Part shown: positions 14,909 to 27,774 of the stretch, one piece after another
Numbering within the stretch: position 1 is the stretch's first letter
Layout: each line of letters begins with the position of its first letter
The notes under the pieces: model-generated
Told to the model about the DNA's origin: nothing
The model's input: only the letters and a program-made list of their open reading frames with translations
Databases searched by the model: none
Sequence record: NC_028847.1
Direction: 5' to 3' (one strand)
From: Escherichia phage QL01
DNA: 64,000 bases
Position numbers and translations under genes: made by a program

Positions 14909-14938
14909 ATAGTACCACATCCTTGTGGTGTTGTAAAC
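14909..14938 (-). promoter_or_regulatory. Early-type promoter (GTTTAC, ~18-nt spacer, TACTAT) for the 96-aa gene
   Basis: Matches T4 early promoter pattern; -35 overlaps stop of alt paralogue A. Confidence 0.45.
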
Positions 14939-17061
14939 TACATTTTGAATTTATTTGATAAAGAAGAGATATCCAAAGACGCGGCAAGGATTTCCATAGC
15001 TTCGTTGCTTTCAGAAACGGATTCATTAACCAAGAATTGACTAAATCCATCCATCAGGCGAACTTCACCAGTTTCCATCAAATGGTCACCATCGTAAACA
15101 GATTCGCTGAGCTCTGAAGGAGGCGTTACGGTAGCTTCCATAAGGTATTTGTGAGATACTCTATCATTCATGGCAAAAGCCGCTACTTTATCAACCTTCA
15201 ACAATAATCCACGCGGAAGGATAATTTCTGCTTCTTCGGCATATTCTGTAAGGTCACCAGGAGCGATAACTTTAACTGCTTCAGCACCTCGAATAACCAT
15301 ACCAATTTCAGCAATTCTATCTGCAGGACCTTCAGGTGCAATTGGATTACCAAACTCGTCTTCTTCCCATTCTACCTCTTCGTCATCGACTTCACCCACA
15401 TCAGATGAACTACCACTAGCCAATTTAAACAACTCATCAGCGGAGGACAAAGAACCTTCACCACCAACAAAAACGGCTTGGTTGTCGAGGGCCATATAAT
15501 TTTTACCGAATTCACCAAAGATGTTAGGCTTTAATGAGGCTGACACAAAGTTCTTAAAGTAAAATGTTTTGTTATCGATATTATGGCGCAGAATTTTGTA
15601 TGGCAAATCCTGACCACGATACAAAATAGTACCCTTAGGAAGTTTAATACCCTTAGTAAATGCTGAGTCTAAATCCTTAATCAATTTAATAGCCGTTGTA
15701 TTGTTTTCGGATTCAGGTTTACCTAAAAGGAATAAGTTCATAGGAGCATATTCAGCCGCGCAATATTCAATAATAGCATTGCTTTCGTCTTTGGTTAGGT
15801 CCTTAGGTTTAATGAGCTCGCCTGAATAAGCATATGCATCACTAATAGAATCGTTAACCAGTTTATAAACGGCTTCCATAGCGAAAGCAATTCTAGATGC
15901 TTTCTCTGAAGGGGAACCCTTAAAACGGGTACTCAGGTTATTAACAATTTTCTTAATAATATCCAGACTATTGGTTGTATTGATTTGCGAAAGGCCACTT
16001 AAAAGTCTATCGACTTCTGTATTAAAAAATGCCATATTATTAGAGTAAATTTCAAACCCTTGTTTATCTCTATTAGCATAATTTAGTTTAAATTTACTAT
16101 CAGTCATTAAAGCGTGTGTGAGAGCAATAGTGTATCTAAAGTTGGCAAGGTCCTCGCTCTTAGATTTAAACTGAGAAGCCTGACGCATTTTAGTAATGGC
16201 ACCTTTTTTAAAGTTCTGACTAATCTGTTCAATACCTTCGTTCTCAGGGCCTTCAGCCGTGTGAACCGGTACAGAAGCTTCAAACTCGTTATAAACCTGC
16301 AATTCTTTAGGGGACAAAGTTTCAGGCTCAGCAGTAGAATACTGCGCGGCCGCAGCCATACGACGCGAAATCTTAGTACGAGAGATAACGGCCTTATCAG
16401 TACGTTTCTCTTCAACTTGTGCAATAGATGCCGCTACGGCTTCTACTTTACTTACGGCCTGGCCTGTTTTCTTAGAAACATACACTTCGCCAACTTTAGA
16501 CTCAACTTTAGTATAAAGATCGGCATTAATTTCAGGCATACCCTTGATATCTTCAATATTAGCACCGCGACGTACTAAAAGAACGTAGGTATGTTTTCCG
16601 CTGAATTGGAACATGTCGTCAACAACTTTAAACTTACCACCGGTACGAGCCATAGCCAAACGAGCTAATACGCGCTGAACGGTAGGACCTTTACCTTTCA
16701 TTTTCTTAGTAGGGAAACGGAATAAAACCGCGTCCATTTTAAGTTTGATTATTTGTTCATATATGGTATCGAAAATGGTGTTCAGTGTACCGAGTGGATC
16801 GGTACCCAAACCACCCTTGAGTTCTGCCGGAGCGCCTTTAGCAGATAAACTCATTAAGATAACATGGACGTACTTATCGCCATTTTTAACCATCTTAATA
16901 GCGTCGCCTTCGGACGCATAAGATACCATACGTGCTACTAAATTGTCATTACCAGGAGCATGTACCGCAAAAATCTGCGGTACGCCTGAGCCAGGTTTAA
17001 GATTTGTTACCGGATAGTTTTTAGCGGAATCGCTATCAAAAACTTCGTTTAAATTTTCCAT
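14938..17061 (-). CDS. alt: Alt-like ADP-ribosyltransferase paralogue A (707 aa)
   Basis: Conserved ~230-aa N-terminal domain with LNE near N-terminus; C-terminal R-S-E motifs (LYRGQ, FVSASL, EAEIILPRG); acidic insertion in catalytic domain. Confidence 0.85.
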   Translation of the reverse strand: MENLNEVFDSDSAKNYPVTNLKPGSGVPQIFAVHAPGNDNLVARMVSYASEGDAIKMVKNGDKYVHVILMSLSAKGAPAELKGGLGTDPLGTLNTIFDTIYEQIIKLKMDAVLFRFPTKKMKGKGPTVQRVLARLAMARTGGKFKVVDDMFQFSGKHTYVLLVRRGANIEDIKGMPEINADLYTKVESKVGEVYVSKKTGQAVSKVEAVAASIAQVEEKRTDKAVISRTKISRRMAAAAQYSTAEPETLSPKELQVYNEFEASVPVHTAEGPENEGIEQISQNFKKGAITKMRQASQFKSKSEDLANFRYTIALTHALMTDSKFKLNYANRDKQGFEIYSNNMAFFNTEVDRLLSGLSQINTTNSLDIIKKIVNNLSTRFKGSPSEKASRIAFAMEAVYKLVNDSISDAYAYSGELIKPKDLTKDESNAIIEYCAAEYAPMNLFLLGKPESENNTTAIKLIKDLDSAFTKGIKLPKGTILYRGQDLPYKILRHNIDNKTFYFKNFVSASLKPNIFGEFGKNYMALDNQAVFVGGEGSLSSADELFKLASGSSSDVGEVDDEEVEWEEDEFGNPIAPEGPADRIAEIGMVIRGAEAVKVIAPGDLTEYAEEAEIILPRGLLLKVDKVAAFAMNDRVSHKYLMEATVTPPSELSESVYDGDHLMETGEVRLMDGFSQFLVNESVSESNEAMEILAASLDISSLSNKFKM

Positions 17062-19113: not shown

Positions 19114-21198
19114 TTACCCTTGGATGAATTTTTCTGGGATGTCATAGAGGTCTATGCATGAAGCCAAAAGAGGCAGTACATCAAACCGTGTAGATTTAAC
19201 AAATGAATCAAAAGATAAGGGGCTTTCGGAAGTATCGAAGTCATCTTGATATACGACCAACTCGCCGGTTTCCATTAGTACATCACCATCATATACCACA
19301 GATTCTTGAAGCTCATCTGTTGTCATAACTTCAGCTTGAATGAGTTTTGTATTACTAGATGTTGTTCCATCATTATTAGAAGCATCTGTTATTTTATTAA
19401 CTTTGACCATTAATCCACGCGGTAGAATAACTTCGGCTTCAGTTGCTATTCCGAGATTTCCTGGATATACGACATTAACTTTATGGGCCCCATCAATAGC
19501 CCATCCTATTTGAACTTTAACATAATCAGGATTTTCTTTATATGCTCTTATTTCATTAGGATTAATAGTTATTCCTTCTTCATTTTTATCGACTGTCAAT
19601 TCATTGCGAACTTCAGGTTCTAAAAGACCGATACCAGCGTGCGTAACACCAAAACGTCCGAAAATTATAGGGGTCAATGAAGTGGATACAAAATTTCTAA
19701 AATAAAACACTTTATTTTTAACTAGTGCTTCGTATATAGGAGCAGTCATACTCTGGGCACGATAAACTGTGATGCCCTCTGGTATACGGTCGCCATTTTC
19801 AAAAGCAGAATCCAAATTATTAACTGCAGATTCGATATCTTTTTCGCTCATAACCTCATAGTTCTGAGGATTATAACGTCCTAAAAGAAGATTATTTATG
19901 TCTGTATATCCTGAACCACAATATTCTCTGATACCACGCTTTTGTGATGGAGTATATTTAGAACCCTCACGAGCAATAGTAATATCGACCATAATACCGC
20001 CACCTACACCAGCAAAACTATACACGCGTTTTTTAATGAACTTGGTCTTGGCCGCTTTCCACTTGGCCTCTGTCAATTCGTTCCAAAGGTCATCAGGTTG
20101 GCCTTTACGGGTTCTGTTATGAATAGCCAGCCACTCGCCTTTGTATTCTTCGAAAATGGTATTAATAGTAGAGGCATATTTTTCTAGGGCTTTAACAGAT
20201 GTCAAAGGTTCGTTTTTGATGGCCGTAAGGATTTTCTCTTTAATTTTCTCTTGGATTTCGCCAATACCGTGAAGTGGGAACAATTTGTAATCGTAATGCA
20301 ATTCTTCAGCAGTGCCTTCAGCCACTATATTAGCAACCTTATTTTTAGCCGCAGGAGAATTGTTATTAGTAACCATTTCCTGAGCCTCAGGGATTAATGG
20401 AACTGTTGCCGGTTTATTAAAATCTACTGCAGTAGCTTCATATTTCTTAAACAGCTCACTTTCATTACGATAAGATTCTAACGATTGACTTGCTGCAATG
20501 GCACGTCGAGAAATCTTAGTCTTGGTTATAACCATTTTATCAGTGCGACGTTCTTCAACCTTAGCAATACTACCGGCAATAGCAGTTTCTTTAGTAACCT
20601 GCATGCCTTCTTTTTTGGAAATATAAACTTCGCCGACATCAGAATCTACCTTAGTATACAATTCAGCATTAATTCCAGGCATACCTTTGATATCTTCTAT
20701 ATCAGCTTGTTTACGAACTACCAGGATGTAAGTATGTTTACCGGTAAATTGGTACATAGCCGGAACTACTTTAAAACGTCCACCTGTTTTCTGTGCTACC
20801 AAACGTTGGATAATCCGTTGAACGATAGGGCCTTGACCTTTCATTTTCTTAGTAGGGAAACGGAACATCACGGCATCCATACGAAGCTTTTTAACTTGGT
20901 CATAAACCACATCAAAAATAGTATTAATCGCATCTACGGGAGTAGGGCCTAGGCCACCTTTAAGTTCGGCAGGCGAACCTTTAGCTGAAAGGCTCATAAG
21001 GATAACGTGGGCATATTTATCACCCATCTTAACCTGTTTAATAGCATCACCTTCAGAAGCGTAGGATACCATACGCGCCACTAATTGGGATTCTGCGTCA
21101 CCAATCTTCCAAATCTGGGGTACTTTAAGTTTTGGGTTCAAGTTTACTGTAGGCAGTGTGCCTTCGGACTCAAACACTTCATTTAATTGTTCGGTCAT
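19114..21198 (-). CDS. alt: Alt-like ADP-ribosyltransferase paralogue C (694 aa)
   Basis: Same architecture; ART motifs VYRAQ, FVSTSL, EAEVILPRG; C-terminal tail shared with B (SFDSFVKST...PEKFIQG). Confidence 0.85.
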   Translation of the reverse strand: MTEQLNEVFESEGTLPTVNLNPKLKVPQIWKIGDAESQLVARMVSYASEGDAIKQVKMGDKYAHVILMSLSAKGSPAELKGGLGPTPVDAINTIFDVVYDQVKKLRMDAVMFRFPTKKMKGQGPIVQRIIQRLVAQKTGGRFKVVPAMYQFTGKHTYILVVRKQADIEDIKGMPGINAELYTKVDSDVGEVYISKKEGMQVTKETAIAGSIAKVEERRTDKMVITKTKISRRAIAASQSLESYRNESELFKKYEATAVDFNKPATVPLIPEAQEMVTNNNSPAAKNKVANIVAEGTAEELHYDYKLFPLHGIGEIQEKIKEKILTAIKNEPLTSVKALEKYASTINTIFEEYKGEWLAIHNRTRKGQPDDLWNELTEAKWKAAKTKFIKKRVYSFAGVGGGIMVDITIAREGSKYTPSQKRGIREYCGSGYTDINNLLLGRYNPQNYEVMSEKDIESAVNNLDSAFENGDRIPEGITVYRAQSMTAPIYEALVKNKVFYFRNFVSTSLTPIIFGRFGVTHAGIGLLEPEVRNELTVDKNEEGITINPNEIRAYKENPDYVKVQIGWAIDGAHKVNVVYPGNLGIATEAEVILPRGLMVKVNKITDASNNDGTTSSNTKLIQAEVMTTDELQESVVYDGDVLMETGELVVYQDDFDTSESPLSFDSFVKSTRFDVLPLLASCIDLYDIPEKFIQG

Positions 21199-21230
21199 AA
21201 TAATTCCTCTTTAATAACCTTATTTATGCC

Positions 21231-21252
21231 AGAAAAGGCCCGAAGGCCTTTA
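21231..21252 (-). terminator. Rho-independent terminator upstream of the alt array
   Basis: AAAGGCC-CGAA-GGCCTTT; on minus strand a CUUCGG-type hairpin followed by U-run. Confidence 0.55.
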
Positions 21253-21435
21253 TTAAAGTACTAACAGCGTACGGTACACTTCAAATTTAGGACCCTTTTC
21301 ATAGCGGTCGAAATTATCTTTAAAATCAGCGAACGCGATTTCATTTTCAAATTCAAGGACAATTTGGGACACTGCAGTGGAGACATCCCCACCTTCTTTA
21401 TATCCAATAACCACGGTTTCTAAATAAGCTTTCAT
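21253..21435 (-). CDS. Hypothetical small protein; start uncertain (alternative ATG at 21471)
   Basis: Track ORF starts at TTG; ATG at 21435 sits 1 nt after ligase stop. Confidence 0.35.
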   Translation of the reverse strand: MKAYLETVVIGYKEGGDVSTAVSQIVLEFENEIAFADFKDNFDRYEKGPKFEVYRTLLVL

Positions 21436-21436
21436 A

Positions 21437-22960
21437 TTATAGACCAGTTTGAGACCAATCACCGAATACATCTTCAAATGTATCAGCTTCTGTTTTATCG
21501 AAACGCCAACCTTTAATAATTGGAAGGAAAATACCTACAGTATCGGTACGTCCTTTAGAATGAACCCAACCATTACATTCACAGTCGGCAATACGGCCAA
21601 TCAATTTACCTTCACGAGCTTGTTTCATAAGAAGTTCACGGTCTAAATCAGGCCGGTCTTCCAATGGAATCAATACCTTTTTACCTGATTTATCTTTCTT
21701 ATGGGTGGTATCTTTAAAGCCTGAACCACAGTCACTTGTAATTCGACGACAACGTGATACTAATTCAACACCACCAAGTTTGTTAGGGTCCTTCGAGTGT
21801 TCATAATAACCTACTACTTCTAAAGCAATATCGATTACTTCTTTGAACTTGATAAGATTCTTAGAACGGCGGTTTTCCCAGTAGGAGTCCATGTTCTTAA
21901 GGATAATACCTTCCAGACCTTGGTCGACATATTTCTTATAAACGACTTTAGCTTCTTCAAGATTATTAACCCACTGGTTTTCGATAGCTTCAACACGCGT
22001 TGTGCCATGCAATACGACATTATGAGCCACCATAAGTTCTAAGGCTGTAAAGCGTACATCATACTTATCACCTTTAATTTTGCCTTCAGAATACACGACA
22101 TCCAGTGGGACATAATCCCATGCCTGTAATACCATACCAGCGGCTTCAGATGGGGTGATAGTTCCTTGAAGAGCCTTATTAGCCAATCCATTTGACGTAG
22201 AACGATCGGCGACAGTTTGGAATTCTTTGGCTTTACTTAATTCAGGAAGTTCCTCGTCAAACATACTAAACAAATCATTAGATGCTTTAGGTTCAACTTT
22301 AGGAGTATGGTAAACTAATTCGCCATCAATCATAACGCCATTAGGATGACGTTGACGAGCTTCTTCGGTCATCGCCATTAATTCAGCAGCTAAAAGATGA
22401 AGCCCTTGGTATTCATTACCACCACGAGTAAGGAATGTCACACCATCGTTACGAACTTCGGCAAAACAACGAGCACCATCAGCTTTTAATTGAGCAAACG
22501 CTGGCCATTTAATATTTTTCTTAATCAAAGCTTCATCATAAGAACTCGCCAACATCTGCTGTTGTTCAGGGATTAAACCTTTCCAAACCTTGTTAGCAAT
22601 AGAAATCGATGCACCACATTCAAGGTCGCGCATCATTACACGACGTAATACCTCGGCATCCGGGGCCTTAGCATCAGCAATGATTTGAGCCAGTTCTTCA
22701 ATAGCCGCATTACCCGTAATCTTACGTGTGGCTAATGTGAATTCAGCGAAATCAAGAAGGTCCTCAAGAGTAATCATACCAAAGGATTGAGATGTAAATC
22801 CAGGTTCTGGCCACTTTTTAATACCGTAGTTCAGACGACGGGTATAAGCCATACGATAAACACGTTTCAGAAGCTCATTGTCCTTTTCACGAGCAATAAT
22901 GGCTTCTTTAGCTTTAGTAGAATCAATAGCAGCAATTTCGTTTAAAATATCTAAAATCAT
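21437..22960 (-). CDS. 30: ATP-dependent DNA ligase gp30
   Basis: MILDILNEIAAIDSTKAKEAI... matches recalled T4 ligase N-terminus; KADGAR adenylation motif; start at internal ATG with SD GAGGTGATT. Confidence 0.9.
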   Translation of the reverse strand: MILDILNEIAAIDSTKAKEAIIAREKDNELLKRVYRMAYTRRLNYGIKKWPEPGFTSQSFGMITLEDLLDFAEFTLATRKITGNAAIEELAQIIADAKAPDAEVLRRVMMRDLECGASISIANKVWKGLIPEQQQMLASSYDEALIKKNIKWPAFAQLKADGARCFAEVRNDGVTFLTRGGNEYQGLHLLAAELMAMTEEARQRHPNGVMIDGELVYHTPKVEPKASNDLFSMFDEELPELSKAKEFQTVADRSTSNGLANKALQGTITPSEAAGMVLQAWDYVPLDVVYSEGKIKGDKYDVRFTALELMVAHNVVLHGTTRVEAIENQWVNNLEEAKVVYKKYVDQGLEGIILKNMDSYWENRRSKNLIKFKEVIDIALEVVGYYEHSKDPNKLGGVELVSRCRRITSDCGSGFKDTTHKKDKSGKKVLIPLEDRPDLDRELLMKQAREGKLIGRIADCECNGWVHSKGRTDTVGIFLPIIKGWRFDKTEADTFEDVFGDWSQTGL

Positions 22961-22970
22961 AATCACCTCA

Positions 22971-23249
22971 TTAGTCATGGATTCTATTATAAGCCACATC
23001 AGCCAAAAGCAAGTCTAATCGCTTATGATAAGAGAACACAAATCTCATTCGCCCATCAGATTTGAACTTGGACATAAAGTGGACATAAATGAATCCCTGT
23101 TCGACGCATTCGCGCCAAACAGGATGGTCTTTAGCCGGATTTACATCAAATGAGTAATCATGATTCACATGACGAATAAACTGGTTTACATGACCATAAT
23201 CCATTGTAGTGGTAGGACCATAGTCTGAAATTGTATGAACTACAAACAT
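22971..23249 (-). CDS. Hypothetical protein (30.1 position)
   Basis: 92 aa from ATG with SD GAGGT immediately after upstream stop. Confidence 0.5.
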   Translation of the reverse strand: MFVVHTISDYGPTTTMDYGHVNQFIRHVNHDYSFDVNPAKDHPVWRECVEQGFIYVHFMSKFKSDGRMRFVFSYHKRLDLLLADVAYNRIHD

Positions 23250-23250
23250 A

Positions 23251-23889
23251 TTAACCTCGAGCAATCCATTCAACTGCGGCATTATTACGAAGGGATTCGA
23301 TTGCTGCGATATCGTCCCATGAATTAACCTTTACGGCCAAATTAGGTTTAAAGTCACGTTCACCACGAGCCAACCAATAAACTTGGATATCCATGAGAAC
23401 ATTAGATGCGGCATCACAGTGGTGAGCCAAATCATCAACATAAAACTTAATACGTTTACCGTACGTATTTTTAGCTCTTATGAAGAGGTCTTCTTTTGAT
23501 TCTGAATGACCACACATCAGAATCTCCTTGAATGCGCCAGGGAACAAAGCATTCAAATTGAATTGTCTATTCAGCAGTGCATCAATTGAGTCGCCTAGCG
23601 CAGTCACGGCTACAAAATCGAAGTCTTTTTTGAGCTTGTTGATATGTTTTAATGCGTCCATGTAAGGAGACAGATAACGAATAAAATCTGACTGATTGTA
23701 CTTCTCGATTAAACGAGCGCCTAATTCATTATCACAATTAAACAGCTCACCAGGAGATAAGAAACGTTCGTCCTGAATCATATTCAAAATATGTTCTAAA
23801 GGCAAATTATATTTCTGTGCGAAATAAGGCAAGCCGGACTGCCAACTTAAACATACTCCATCGATATCTGTTAAGATAACTGGTTTCAT
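23251..23889 (-). CDS. HAD-superfamily-like hydrolase (30.2 position)
   Basis: 212 aa; N-terminal ILTDIDGV resembles HAD motif I (DxDG[TV]); ATGA-coupled to upstream gene. Confidence 0.55.
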   Translation of the reverse strand: MKPVILTDIDGVCLSWQSGLPYFAQKYNLPLEHILNMIQDERFLSPGELFNCDNELGARLIEKYNQSDFIRYLSPYMDALKHINKLKKDFDFVAVTALGDSIDALLNRQFNLNALFPGAFKEILMCGHSESKEDLFIRAKNTYGKRIKFYVDDLAHHCDAASNVLMDIQVYWLARGERDFKPNLAVKVNSWDDIAAIESLRNNAAVEWIARG

Positions 23890-24344
23890 AATAAATCTCT
23901 CAATTTGTTTAGGATGTCGATAAACTCTTTTTCAGTTAGTATTGTATCACATTCTGTAAGGTGGCTCGCCATCGAATGCTTTAAAACTTTGCCCTTTGTA
24001 GCTTGTAATGCGTCGCGGAATCCTTTGTTTTGGAGCGCTGCTTCAAAATATGCATTTGTATACAACTCTTTCCATGATGTAGAGTATCTTGAAAAGGGAA
24101 TTCCAAGCCAGAAAAGCGTCCCACGGTCCGCAGCTCTTGCATAAGCTCTTCCAGTTTGTTGTGCGGCCAGACCGGACATCCCAAATATACGTTTTTGTTG
24201 TTCATGATTTCTCACCTTACACCCTTGGAGGAATCCTTCGAGCCCTCCAAATTGGATACCATCCATAACGAAAGGCCATTTAGCAAAGTTACTTAATGCA
24301 CATGATGGCCATGGAAAATTGCTTCTTATTTCTAACTCAGACAT
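23886..24344 (-). CDS. NADAR/YbiA-like protein (30.3 position); start uncertain (track start is GTG at 24353)
   Basis: CALSNFAKWPFVMDGIQFGGLEGFLQGCKV resembles the NADAR core block (FSNF..WP..vDG..w...EhyFQA.Kf) recalled from E. coli YbiA. Confidence 0.55.
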   Translation of the reverse strand: MSELEIRSNFPWPSCALSNFAKWPFVMDGIQFGGLEGFLQGCKVRNHEQQKRIFGMSGLAAQQTGRAYARAADRGTLFWLGIPFSRYSTSWKELYTNAYFEAALQNKGFRDALQATKGKVLKHSMASHLTECDTILTEKEFIDILNKLRDLL

Positions 24345-24549
24345 CTTTGACACTTATAATTTCGACATCAGCCCAATGACCATAACCAGGTAGACGGTCT
24401 TCAATAGATAATCCGCCATCAGATTTCAGCATTTTAATTGTTTTAGTATATGGTTCATCTTGTGGATGCACAGGAGATAAATCAGTTACACGATAAGTCA
24501 CTTCGACCATTTCCGTACCTAATAATTTCTGAATCAATTTCTTAAACAT
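24337..24549 (-). CDS. Hypothetical small protein
   Basis: 70-aa ORF, tightly packed. Confidence 0.5.
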   Translation of the reverse strand: MFKKLIQKLLGTEMVEVTYRVTDLSPVHPQDEPYTKTIKMLKSDGGLSIEDRLPGYGHWADVEIISVKDV

Positions 24550-24550
24550 A

Positions 24551-24745
24551 TTATCCTCGCTTTAAACATTTGATTACAGACAGTTCACCGCCCATGCGAA
24601 CGTCTTCAGTTCCATCGACCCATAAGACGGTGTAGGCTTCTTTAATAGTAACATTACCTAATTTAAAAGCAGGTAGAACCTTGGAAATCATTCCAGGAAT
24701 ACCTACACCTTTTAACTGAACCGTTTGCGATAAGAATAATTTCAT
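24551..24745 (-). CDS. Hypothetical small protein
   Basis: 64-aa ORF. Confidence 0.5.
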   Translation of the reverse strand: MKLFLSQTVQLKGVGIPGMISKVLPAFKLGNVTIKEAYTVLWVDGTEDVRMGGELSVIKCLKRG

Positions 24746-24746
24746 G

Positions 24747-25043
24747 TTAGCCTCGGTATTTCATTTGGAAGCAATGCTGCTCGTCACATTCAATAAAGAA
24801 CTTGCGGTCTGCAGCAGAAATAATAATTCGTTCATCTTGACGGGCGTCCGTTTTGATAGATTTCATATCATAAGACACTTTATCATACGGTATATAGATT
24901 TTATACACGTCGCCATTCTGGGCGAAATCAACACGGAATAGCTCTAGACCTATTAAATCAGTTACAAGACTGTTTATAGCATAGAACCCGTCAAGCTGGC
25001 TAGTAGGCAAACAGTACCATTTACCTTCAATAAACTCTAACAT
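24747..25043 (-). CDS. Hypothetical protein
   Basis: Track ORF begins at TTG; first ATG gives 98 aa (MLEFIEGKWY...). Confidence 0.5.
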   Translation of the reverse strand: MLEFIEGKWYCLPTSQLDGFYAINSLVTDLIGLELFRVDFAQNGDVYKIYIPYDKVSYDMKSIKTDARQDERIIISAADRKFFIECDEQHCFQMKYRG

Positions 25044-25051
25044 AATTAACC

Positions 25052-25339
25052 TCAATATCTCATCTGAAAGCCGTGTGATTTAACATTACCACCATAGATG
25101 TCAGAGGTATTGACTTCACGGGCGACACTTGGGTCGATATTGATATCATGGTTGAGCTTAGTGATTGCTAGGGTATCACGACCATTAACAGTACGGAATT
25201 CTACCGGGCATACAACATCAGCATAGGCCTTAATAGATTCACGAGTGGGTTGTTTGTCGGCAGGAACGTCTTTACCTGCTTTAGAGAAAACAACTTCACA
25301 GAAATTTTTACGAGTATCAAAATAAGTGGTCATAAACAT
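25052..25339 (-). CDS. Hypothetical protein
   Basis: Start at internal ATG preceded by SD GAGGAAAATATT; the upstream in-frame ATG lies inside an intercistronic hairpin. Confidence 0.5.
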   Translation of the reverse strand: MFMTTYFDTRKNFCEVVFSKAGKDVPADKQPTRESIKAYADVVCPVEFRTVNGRDTLAITKLNHDINIDPSVAREVNTSDIYGGNVKSHGFQMRY

Positions 25340-25354
25340 AATATTTTCCTCAAA

Positions 25355-25370
25355 GGAGGCCGAAGCCTCC
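25355..25370 (-). other. Intercistronic CUUCGG-tetraloop RNA hairpin
   Basis: GGAGGC-CGAA-GCCTCC (minus strand GGAGGCUUCGGCCUCC) between a stop codon and the next RBS; identical copy at 63002-63017. Confidence 0.6.
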
Positions 25371-25380
25371 ATTTTTAAGA

Positions 25381-25746
25381 TTAGATGTCGAATTCATTCA
25401 GAACTACATCAAAGATTGCTTCCAGGTGTTCAGGTTTAGCTCGGTTGCTCAGGATGTGACGAATCCAAGTTTTAACCAGAAGCTTACGATTAACACCGTT
25501 CCAGCAAGGATGGGTACCTAAATCACGTTGACGGAAATCATCATCTAAAGCGATTTTAAAAGTAGAACCTTCCATTGTGATTGAAACCGTAATACCATTT
25601 TCAAAGCGCATATAAACGTAGTTAGGAGTCATGCACTGTTCGATTTCGCACACCGCGCCGTTGTTGTGTTTCCACAGGCAAATAACTTCAGAAGAACCAG
25701 CGATACCGTTAGAAACATATTTACGTTCGAAGTTGATGTAGTTCAT
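25381..25746 (-). CDS. Hypothetical protein
   Basis: 121-aa ORF; SD GGAGAATAAA; preceded by promoter/stem-loop cassette. Confidence 0.55.
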   Translation of the reverse strand: MNYINFERKYVSNGIAGSSEVICLWKHNNGAVCEIEQCMTPNYVYMRFENGITVSITMEGSTFKIALDDDFRQRDLGTHPCWNGVNRKLLVKTWIRHILSNRAKPEHLEAIFDVVLNEFDI

Positions 25747-25776
25747 TTTATTCTCCAGTTTGTTTTCGTATTATTT

Positions 25777-25817
25777 GGTACAGGTCTATAATAACACAAC
25801 CTGTACCAAAGTAAAAC
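25777..25817 (-). promoter_or_regulatory. Promoter-early-stem-loop (PeSL)-like cassette
   Basis: 9-bp inverted repeat GGTACAGGT/ACCTGTACC whose loop carries a -10-like TATTAT, with GTTTTAC -35-like element 17 nt upstream. Confidence 0.45.
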
Positions 25818-25819
25818 AT

Positions 25820-26152
25820 TTATTTCACAACATTCCAATTTTTCATATCAAGTTTACCAACTTTTTTCATCTGAGCAATCAGACGTTCAGCACGTGTACG
25901 GGCATTAACATAATAGAATTCACCATTTTTGTTTTCTTCAATACGACCAGTAATTACAGTTTTCAGTTCATAAATCCAACCTGTAAAGAAGTTGTGAAGC
26001 TCGATGGTGAATGTAAAATCAGTACCCATACCTTCAGTTGTTTCAACTTCGATGATATCACCTTCAACTGCAGTCAGGACCCACATGGTTTCTTGATATT
26101 CACCGTTGAAACATTTAGCTTTAACAGATGCATTCAGATTTACAGTTTTCAT
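25820..26152 (-). CDS. Hypothetical protein
   Basis: 110-aa ORF; 5' leader nearly identical to that of the gene at 25381..25746. Confidence 0.55.
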   Translation of the reverse strand: MKTVNLNASVKAKCFNGEYQETMWVLTAVEGDIIEVETTEGMGTDFTFTIELHNFFTGWIYELKTVITGRIEENKNGEFYYVNARTRAERLIAQMKKVGKLDMKNWNVVK

Positions 26153-26193
26153 TTTATTCTCCAGTTTGTTTTAGTATTATTTGGTACATGTCT

Positions 26194-26222
26194 ATAGTAT
26201 CATGCCTACCGGAGATGTACAC
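26194..26222 (-). promoter_or_regulatory. Early-type promoter (GTGTAC, 17 nt, TACTAT)
   Basis: Spacing matches T4 early promoters; directly downstream of a terminator hairpin. Confidence 0.45.
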
Positions 26223-26244
26223 CCTTTTTTAAAGATTTAGAAAC

Positions 26245-26270
26245 AAAAATGGGACTCCGAAGAGTCCCAT
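26245..26270 (-). terminator. Rho-independent terminator after the 53-aa basic-protein gene
   Basis: GGGACTC-CGAA-GAGTCCC; minus strand hairpin followed by AUUUUUGUUU. Confidence 0.6.
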
Positions 26271-26273
26271 AAC

Positions 26274-26435
26274 TTATGCCTGAGGCTTACCAAAGCAAGC
26301 AGCATCTGCACGCAATACTGCACGAGCACGAGCTTGAAGCTTATCAACTACCTGATTGATACGCTTGTTGGACGCACGCTTGTAACCAGCGCGTTTAGAG
26401 GTACCGTCAACTACTTTAACTTCTTTCTTAGCCAT
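26274..26435 (-). CDS. Small highly basic protein (53 aa)
   Basis: MAKKEVKVVDGTSKRAGYKRASNKRINQVVDKLQARARAVLRADAACFGKPQA; own promoter, long leader and terminator; under 60 aa so absent from ORF track. Confidence 0.5.
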   Translation of the reverse strand: MAKKEVKVVDGTSKRAGYKRASNKRINQVVDKLQARARAVLRADAACFGKPQA

Positions 26436-26590
26436 TTTAAATCTCTTAAATTAGGATGCAGGACTTATTGGCGTTGCCTGCGCAAGCCCTCAAGGGGAAC
26501 ATAGGTTTCGGATATTTAACGACAGGATAACCATAAACCTCGTCATCATACCAACCACGACTTAGACAGATAACCTTTTTCTGACGCGTG

Positions 26591-26609
26591 ATAGTACAAA
26601 ATACATTCA
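26591..26609 (-). promoter_or_regulatory. Early-type promoter (GTGTAC, 17 nt, TACTAT) heading a ~150-nt leader for the 53-aa gene
   Basis: Same hexamers and spacing as the promoter at 26194-26222. Confidence 0.4.
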
Positions 26610-26697
26610 AGAGGTACACCGTAAAACTGTTGGGGTCTTAAAACTATAATGATTCGCAAATCATTAATCAAACAGTTCGACGGCTCCTCGATTTAAC

Positions 26698-26946
26698 TTA
26701 CTTCAGGGTAATAATAAAATGACGTACTGCTTTACGAGCTGCTGAAGCCAAAGGCTTAGCAAATTTCAGTTCATCTTTAGCTTCCAGTTCAGCAGCCAGA
26801 GTAGCCTGAGCAGGATTCAGATGTTTGAAATAACGCAGGATTTCCAGTGCTTCGGCCTCAACATCAATAGATGCGCCGTAGTTTTCGTGACCGTTGTTCC
26901 AAGCGTTGCGTTGCAGTTCAAGAGCGTGATTCAATTGTTTGTTCAT
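26698..26946 (-). CDS. rIII: rIII lysis-inhibition accessory protein
   Basis: 82 aa (T4 rIII is 82 aa); immediately upstream of gene 31 as in T4; sequence not independently recalled. Confidence 0.55.
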   Translation of the reverse strand: MNKQLNHALELQRNAWNNGHENYGASIDVEAEALEILRYFKHLNPAQATLAAELEAKDELKFAKPLASAARKAVRHFIITLK

Positions 26947-27092
26947 TTTAGTTTCTCAATTCGAGATAAAGATTGGTGGACACGTTCTTCTGAATTTCAC
27001 TTCCTTTCGGCAAGTCTCTCAGTTGTAGTCCACCGCTTAGGATTCTCCGGTTAACTAACTAGTCCGGCAGCCAATCCATATTATTATTTATA

Positions 27093-27416
27093 TCACTTAT
27101 AAAGGCAAGGAATAGCTTTATAGTGACAGGTAACGAATTTTTGTTTAATTTCTTTAGGTTGTTTAATACCCAATGCAACCAACGGATGAGGCACGTTAGC
27201 AATCTTACCAACAGGAAGTGGAGTCAAATCGCCTACTTCACAAAAATCTTCAGGGACATCAGGTCCTACAGAATAAATTTCACAAAGTTCAGGGATTTCA
27301 CCTTGATGAAGTTTGCCAATAACGATACCAGATGCAGTAGTTTCTTCATCACCGGCTTGTTTTGGTTCGGAAACGAGAATAACATATTCTCCGACCGCTT
27401 TAATAGGAAGTTCCAT
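27093..27416 (-). CDS. 31: Co-chaperonin gp31 (GroES-like)
   Basis: 107 aa (T4 gp31 is 111 aa); GroES-like N-terminus; position. Confidence 0.8.
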
Positions 27417-27474
27417 ATTTAATCCATATTGTTTTGTTGATAGATTAATAATAACACGCTATTCTTAAAGCATA

Positions 27475-27774
27475 TTACAGGACAAGCAGAGTTTCAGTCT
27501 GAAGGCCGTTAATAGAAATCAGCTTATCGAAACGGAATGAGCGCCAATCATTAACCTTGGTATCAAATACTCTGATATAATTAACAGGTTCTTTATTGGC
27601 TTCTGGCCCAGGGGCCTGGACTTCTTTATACGGCAGCAGGTCTAAGTCGCGAGTACAAGTCATACGACGGGCACTACCATCAGCTTTTTCAAACAGGACT
27701 TCGTGAAAACCAACAGACAAAATAGTCTTGACTTTTTCACGGAGACGAATAGTTTCTTGTTCGGTTAAAATCAT
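27475..27774 (-). CDS. Hypothetical protein (31.1 position)
   Basis: 99-aa ORF. Confidence 0.55.
   Translation of the reverse strand: MILTEQETIRLREKVKTILSVGFHEVLFEKADGSARRMTCTRDLDLLPYKEVQAPGPEANKEPVNYIRVFDTKVNDWRSFRFDKLISINGLQTETLLVL

Follow-up and report, generated by a model that had tools for sequence, protein, structure and literature searches.

The gp30.3 proteins of phages form a clade of NADAR proteins, as described by De Souza and Aravind and later by Schuller et al. 2023, and are marked by a histidine in the last strand (PMC11543638). The T4 protein removes guanine-linked ADP-ribose from DNA in vitro (PMC11125620). LeRoux and colleagues renamed T4 gp30.3 AdfN and found it to be both necessary and sufficient for the resistance of T-even phages to DarTG1 (PMC11825919). 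AdfN-T4 is impaired by the substitutions E36A and K43A and by removal of its last 15 residues as in RB69, where loss of the C-terminal helix abolishes protection, and it is inactive on thymine-ADPr (PMC11825919). In uninfected cells it fails to detoxify DarT1, and it gives hardly any help to T5 or Bas25 (PMC11825919), so that an additional T-even factor may be needed. In a T4 transposon screen, reported in one preprint, insertions in 30.3 are lost under DarTG1 (log2FC −7.25, adjusted p 0).

The window analyzed here is a 64-kb stretch of DNA whose sequence places its source among the T-even-type (Dhakavirus-like) coliphages; positions 22900–24800 are 97–99% identical to Dhakavirus-type coliphages (vB_EcoM_FB, IME281, WG01 and Bp7). 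A minus-strand block contains three Alt-like paralogs, the ligase gp30, 30.1, ORFs of 212 and 152 residues, 30.4 and 30.5. The features discussed below are:

14938-17061, minus strand: Alt-like ADP-ribosyltransferase paralog 1, 707 aa, Pfam ADPrib_exo_Tox PF03496
17065-19110, minus strand: Alt-like ADP-ribosyltransferase paralog 2, 681 aa, Pfam ADPrib_exo_Tox PF03496
19114-21198, minus strand: Alt-like ADP-ribosyltransferase paralog 3, 694 aa, Pfam ADPrib_exo_Tox PF03496
21437-22999, minus strand: DNA ligase gp30
between ligase gp30 and 30.2, minus strand: 30.1 (DUF3045)
23251..23889, minus strand: 30.2, a HAD-superfamily phosphatase of 212 residues whose helical cap is of the C1 type
23886..24344, minus strand: 30.3 (adfN), a 152-aa NADAR-fold ADP-ribosylglycohydrolase (anti-DarT factor NADAR), assigned from PF08010, T4 orthology and fold
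24337..24549, minus strand: 30.4 (phrog_2042), the upstream neighbor of 30.3

The order 30.4-30.3-30.2-30.1-30 (ligase)-alt in the window is the order annotated in T4, and the two central ORFs are the orthologs of the T4 early genes 30.3 and 30.2 in their conserved T-even order. An earlier note on this DNA had given the positions of both ORFs correctly, together with the peptide block that it quoted from the 152-residue protein, the DIDGV motif of the 212-residue protein and a distance of 2.7 kb to an array of three ADP-ribosyltransferases. Of the Alt-like genes, all three of which match PF03496, the nearest extends to 21198, 2688 nt from 23886. T4 has a single alt with short alt.-1 and alt.-2 remnants of an old duplication, and the window has three tandem full-length Alt-like paralogs.

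Genes 30.3 and 30.2 overlap by 4 nt (ATGA), and start/stop overlaps are common throughout the early block, at 30.4/30.3 and 30.2/30.1 as well. The last 8 nt of 30.4 overlap the start of 30.3, which is thus probably translationally coupled to 30.4. In the T4 transposon screen, DarTG1 causes a mild but significant loss of 30.4 insertions (log2FC −1.79, adjusted p 0.014), most simply through polarity on adfN/30.3, with a role of 30.4 itself being possible. A scan of 21000–27500 gave fewer promoter-like sites than shuffled sequences, and none between 30.3 and 30.2. A strong terminator-like hairpin (26249-26270, minus strand; 9-bp stem, 5 GC pairs, T-run) lies just 3′ of a 53-aa ORF (26274-26435) and possibly marks the start of a transcription unit running from 30.8 through 30.3 and 30.2 to the ligase. 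A 74-aa ORF in another frame inside 30.3 (23981-24205, minus strand) is the counterpart of the 30.3′ annotated in T4; although both phages keep this overlapping frame open, its identity is 61%, compared to 86% for the 30.3 frame, and thus shows no sign that it is under selection.

Annotation of the two genes in GenBank is uneven. Most copies of both are labeled "hypothetical protein", and a few are called "ybiA-like protein", "HAD-like protein", "5′ nucleotidase" or "phosphatase". In addition, names that were apparently mis-transferred, such as "homing endonuclease", "baseplate hub protein" and "site-specific RNA endonuclease", are attached to some of the features overlapping the matches.

The 30.3 ORF starts with ATG and encodes 152 residues, with an in-frame GTG three codons upstream at 24353. 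As its product begins at the same methionine as T4 gp30.3, the ATG at 24344 is the likelier start. The two proteins align without gaps over all 152 residues with 86% identity, and none of the 22 positions at which they differ is a residue known to matter. The alignment extends to the last residue of both, so the window protein is full length, and it has a predicted C-terminal helix (residues 138–151). Its sole Pfam match is PF08010 (Phage_30_3, "Bacteriophage protein GP30.3"), with an E-value of 3.9e-64 and 215 bits against a cut-off of 36. The data on the window protein itself thus show that 30.3 is an ortholog of AdfN, with its fold, its conserved residues and its full length; AdfN is an anti-defense gene that is already known and characterized. 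By analogy with its T4 ortholog, it is expected to remove guanine-linked ADP-ribose and to confer DarTG1 resistance. In the proposed mechanism, the host DarT1 toxin would ADP-ribosylate the N2 of guanine in single-stranded phage DNA and thereby block replication. AdfN, as a stand-alone NADAR-fold N-glycosidase, would cleave the bond between ribose and guanine, freeing ADP-ribose and restoring the base, and this repair would allow the phage to escape the DarTG1 abortive-infection defense.

Membership of window 30.3 in the NADAR/YbiA superfamily, which the earlier note had proposed from a NADAR-like block, is supported by four independent lines of evidence. The block (CALSNFAKWPFVMDGIQFGGLEGFLQGCKV) corresponds to residues 15–44, and a search of PDB sequences with the single protein returned YbiA as the sole match, over exactly these residues (E=1.2). 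A family profile, based on 89 representatives from 716 clusters found in a search of 1.8 billion proteins, matches YbiA with an E-value of 3.7e-4 and nothing else in the PDB below E=0.4. The Pfam NADAR profile (PF08719), a check named in the earlier note, does not match the window protein itself even at E-values up to 1, but it does match 18 of the 89 family representatives (best E=3.5e-6). The fourth line is the predicted fold. The AlphaFold2 model (pLDDT 82.8) has YbiA (2b3w) as its top Foldseek match in the PDB (E=3e-5, probability 1.00, TM 0.58). The second match is the NADAR-ADP-ribose complex of P. nicotianae (8bau, probability 0.80), and all others have E-values of at least 3. In NCBIfam, gp30.3 gave only a sub-threshold match to the YbiA-type riboflavin N-glycosidase, and in PADLOC no match. 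Many representatives of the family are 250–540 residues long, with the NADAR domain at the C- or N-terminus of a larger protein, and six of the 89 scanned, among the shorter ones, also match DUF6939 (PF22075).

Three residues, each at least 90% conserved among the 89 representatives, are expected to make up the active site:

24237..24239, minus strand: codon GAA of Glu36, the catalytic Glu of the "LEG" motif, invariant in alignment A3 and at least 90% conserved in alignment A4, aligned with the YbiA Glu
24216..24218, minus strand: codon AAG of Lys43, phosphate-coordinating, at least 90% conserved, seven residues past the Glu as in other NADARs, aligned with the YbiA Lys
23976..23978, minus strand: codon CAT of His123 in the last β-strand (predicted strand 120–124), conserved in both alignments to the degree given for Glu36

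Glu36 is equivalent to E36 of AdfN-T4, E43 of PnNADAR and E88 of the E. coli C7 NADAR, and the equivalents of Lys43 (K95/K50) have been described (PMC11543638). By homology, the three residues should cluster in space, with Glu36 placed to contact the distal ribose, Lys43 the diphosphate, and His123 contributed by the last strand. The motif SEHYFQ of YbiA is LEGFLQ in the window protein, an exchange of EH for EG. The earlier note had singled out this loss of the canonical His. The difference from YbiA is real, but a departure from a working active site is not supported, as T4 AdfN, active both in vitro and in vivo, has the same LEG (PMC11825919, PMC11125620). EG is the consensus of the family and, being shared with the active T4 enzyme, gives no sign of a disabled or unusual site.

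The adjoining ORF encodes gp30.2 (23251..23889, minus strand), a protein of 212 residues with the N-terminus MKPVILTDIDGV. It is 74% identical to T4 gp30.2 over 194 residues. The T4 protein (L001 7475-8311) has 278 residues and an additional Pro/Tyr/Asn-rich C-terminal tail; the window protein is without this tail of ∼85 residues. Members of the family range from 196 to 347 residues, with a highly variable C-terminus and a conserved catalytic core (approximately residues 1–195). In an alignment of 40–41 sequences of the family, each of the four motifs of HAD phosphatases is either invariant or shows conservation of at least 90%:

23854..23868, minus strand: HAD motif I, D8-I-D10-G-V12, with predicted nucleophile Asp8 and acid/base Asp10; D8, D10 and G11 invariant in 40-41 members
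23602..23604, minus strand: HAD motif II, Thr96, at the end of predicted strand 91–96, at least 90% conserved and followed by the invariant A97
23494..23496, minus strand: HAD motif III, Lys132, invariant
23431..23436, minus strand: HAD motif IV, Asp152-Asp153 (predicted Mg2+ ligands), at the end of predicted strand 147–152, invariant

In the model of gp30.2 (pLDDT 94.8), the HAD core is Rossmannoid, and a helical segment inserted between its first two strands corresponds to a C1 cap. Profile searches with this protein gave no significant match: Pfam NT5C (PF06941) remains below threshold (13.4 bits, E=0.074, cut-off 24.8), the family profile finds nothing significant among PDB sequences (NT5C 2jao, E=0.19), and NCBIfam and PADLOC return no match. 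HAD membership accordingly rests on the fold and the motifs. Thus, of the earlier proposal that this ORF is HAD-like, the assignment itself stands, and the suggested test by HAD family profiles gave sub-threshold or no matches. We conclude that gp30.2 belongs to the HAD-type hydrolases and that its motif I is intact. A second Asp in motif I is characteristic of phosphatases, not dehalogenases, and enzymes with a C1 cap act on small substrates. On these two features, gp30.2 is read as a small-molecule phosphomonoesterase, which would be Mg2+-dependent, use Asp8 as the nucleophile and operate outside the AdfN mechanism. Its predicted substrate, given with low confidence, is a small molecule, most likely similar to a (deoxy)nucleoside monophosphate, which would make the enzyme nucleotidase-like. 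A literature search returned no functional study of 30.2. In the T4 transposon data, 30.2 is non-essential, and no phenotype of its insertions is seen either under DarTG1 or in minimal medium, the condition in which a nucleotide-metabolism phenotype was looked for.

The 30.3 and 30.2 families are represented in 1509 and 1446 GenBank phage records, respectively, with a matching host breakdown. Both are quasi-core in T4-like phages, so their co-occurrence at the genome level is uninformative, and we therefore turn to gene order. Genes 30.3 and 30.2 remain adjacent in Tevenvirinae and in one Acinetobacter phage of the Twarogvirinae, always together with the ligase. In Aeromonas phage Aes508, they are ∼59 kb apart, and they are also separated in Jiaodavirus. 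The surroundings of 30.3 in CcrColossus and in a Vibrio schizo-T4 phage are unrelated. We also sampled the 6 kb around gp30.3-type NADAR genes in 80 divergent IMG/VR loci (L007-L086). A gp30.2 homolog lies within this distance in 11 of the 80, the ligase in 10, all of them among these 11, and an Alt-like gene in seven, nearly always with the ligase. An adjacency of hydrolase and transferase that is independent of lineage, as in DarT-NADAR operons, is not seen for gp30.3 and Alt. The closeness of 30.3 and 30.2 to the Alt genes is therefore inherited synteny of the T4 "ligase block", which is lineage-specific and does not constitute a functional module.

This conclusion bears on the writer/eraser or ADP-ribose-salvage module that the earlier note had seen in these genes. 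For the first form of this idea, the NADAR would reverse or tune the ADP-ribosylation carried out by the phage's own Alt paralogs, sparing phage or host targets from over-modification. The three Alt-like genes, the ligase, 30.1, 30.2 and 30.3 indeed lie on one strand within 9.4 kb, the same order is found in T4 and in the Acinetobacter phage of another subfamily, and the association of T4-like NADARs, as early genes, with ADP-ribosyltransferases has already been noted (PMC9503650). We also found no test of a NADAR on Arg-ADPr proteins, the products of Alt, in the literature. Alt targets arginine on proteins, whereas the reported NADAR activities appear to be directed, without exception, at ADP-ribose linked to nucleobases. 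Furthermore, T4 can do without 30.3 on K-12 (27 of 28 sites hit), a host in which Alt, ModA and ModB are at work. The only phenotype of 30.3 is dependent on DarTG1, under which insertions in alt are neutral (log2FC −0.01). Together with the scarcity of Alt-like genes around divergent NADARs, these data make an eraser of Alt modifications very improbable. The salvage form, in which AdfN frees ADP-ribose and gp30.2 dephosphorylates a product derived from it (for example, ribose-5-phosphate or ADPr-1″-phosphate after Nudix cleavage), has a small chance of being correct. The overlap and shared orientation of the two genes, the near-universal presence of both families in T4-like phages with similar host breakdown, and their adjacency in two subfamilies are all in its favor. 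However, such overlaps are the rule across the early block, the genes are far apart or unlinked in Aes508, Jiaodavirus and most of the divergent loci, insertions in the 30.2 of T4 have no effect either under DarTG1 or in minimal medium, and the closest structural relatives of gp30.2 are nucleotidase-like or generic phosphatases. The module proposal is thus not supported; the function indicated by the T4 ortholog is the reversal of guanine ADP-ribosylation of phage DNA by the host DarT1, the synteny is lineage-specific, and 30.2 and alt lack a DarTG1 phenotype in T4.

AdfN-T4 works only during T-even infection, for which its authors invoke an additional T-even protein, and 30.2, as the translationally coupled downstream gene conserved across Straboviridae, would be a candidate for such a T-even-specific helper in vivo. 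We rejected this candidate on the T4 Tn-seq table, where 30.2 insertions have a log2FC of −0.12 under DarTG1 (71 sites, p 0.61), compared to −7.25 for 30.3. Moreover, the two genes are unlinked in many lineages and the purified AdfN shows activity in vitro by itself, which leaves gp30.2 as the missing helper with only the slimmest likelihood. Since a single-gene transposon screen, here from one T4 preprint, would mask redundancy, a redundant helper role of 30.2 would be missed. AdfN might then need or cooperate with another phage function to which gp30.2 contributes redundantly, for example by clearing a phosphoester derived from ADP-ribose or a modified nucleotide after de-ADP-ribosylation; this is a long shot. 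Our preferred reading, to which we assign a probability of roughly 85%, is that 30.3 encodes AdfN, that 30.2 encodes a separate HAD phosphatase, and that their closeness to the Alt genes reflects inherited gene order and not a module.

A different setting of the NADAR gene was also observed. In Aes508 (L002) and in Klebsiella phage KpV477 (L003), 30.3 is located inside a tRNA cluster. Among the 80 IMG/VR loci, which are not phylogenetically independent and include two jumbo contigs, at least three tRNAs are present within 6 kb of the NADAR gene in 23, a tRNA within 1.5 kb in 21, and tRNAs on both sides in 12. The tRNAs are co-oriented with the NADAR gene in all cases, and this setting is commoner than adjacency to either the HAD gene (11/80) or an Alt-like gene (7/80). 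The clusters could be a "parking lot" for accessory genes, or they could hint at an RNA-linked role; given this frequent embedding, it is a possibility that gp30.3-type NADARs also act on ADP-ribosylated RNA or tRNA.

The practical value of these assignments is mainly for annotation, as 30.3 can now be named adfN (DNA ADP-ribosylglycohydrolase, anti-DarTG1 factor). The phage is predicted to resist E. coli carrying DarTG1, which bears on host range and on phage therapy. The 30.2 product is a conserved, clearly enzymatic and quasi-core protein of Straboviridae; it poses a modest problem that this window does not make newly tractable.

In comparison with known systems, gp30.2 has the full set of features of the C1-capped phosphatases similar to HAD subfamily IA, namely motifs I–IV and a Rossmannoid core into which a helical cap is inserted past the first strand. 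Its nearest named relatives are the NT5C 5′(3′)-deoxyribonucleotidases (3bwv, 2jao and 6g2n), in which the Phe of DMDGVLADF aligns with the invariant W16 of gp30.2. Window 30.3 shares the fold of the NADAR superfamily (YbiA 2b3w, 8bau, the DarG1 antitoxins and PF08719) and its Glu-x6-Lys core (SEHYFQAQK compared to LEGFLQGCK). It differs from YbiA in having Gly instead of His after the Glu, and its His123 is replaced by Glu in the YbiA family and by Asp in the DarT1-linked NADAR family. Unlike the DarG1 antitoxins, it is not located beside a DarT toxin and is, in this sense, an orphan "antitoxin". Two other T-even proteins, AdfM (the T4 tk.4 macrodomain, anti-DarTG2) and AdfA (gp61.2), are likewise counter-measures against DarT toxins, but their folds are unrelated to that of AdfN, with AdfM acting on thymine-ADPr and AdfA binding the toxin. 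The closest match is AdfN of T4 itself, which occupies the same slot between 30.4 and 30.2 and whose E36, K43, H123 and C-terminal helix are all retained in the window protein.
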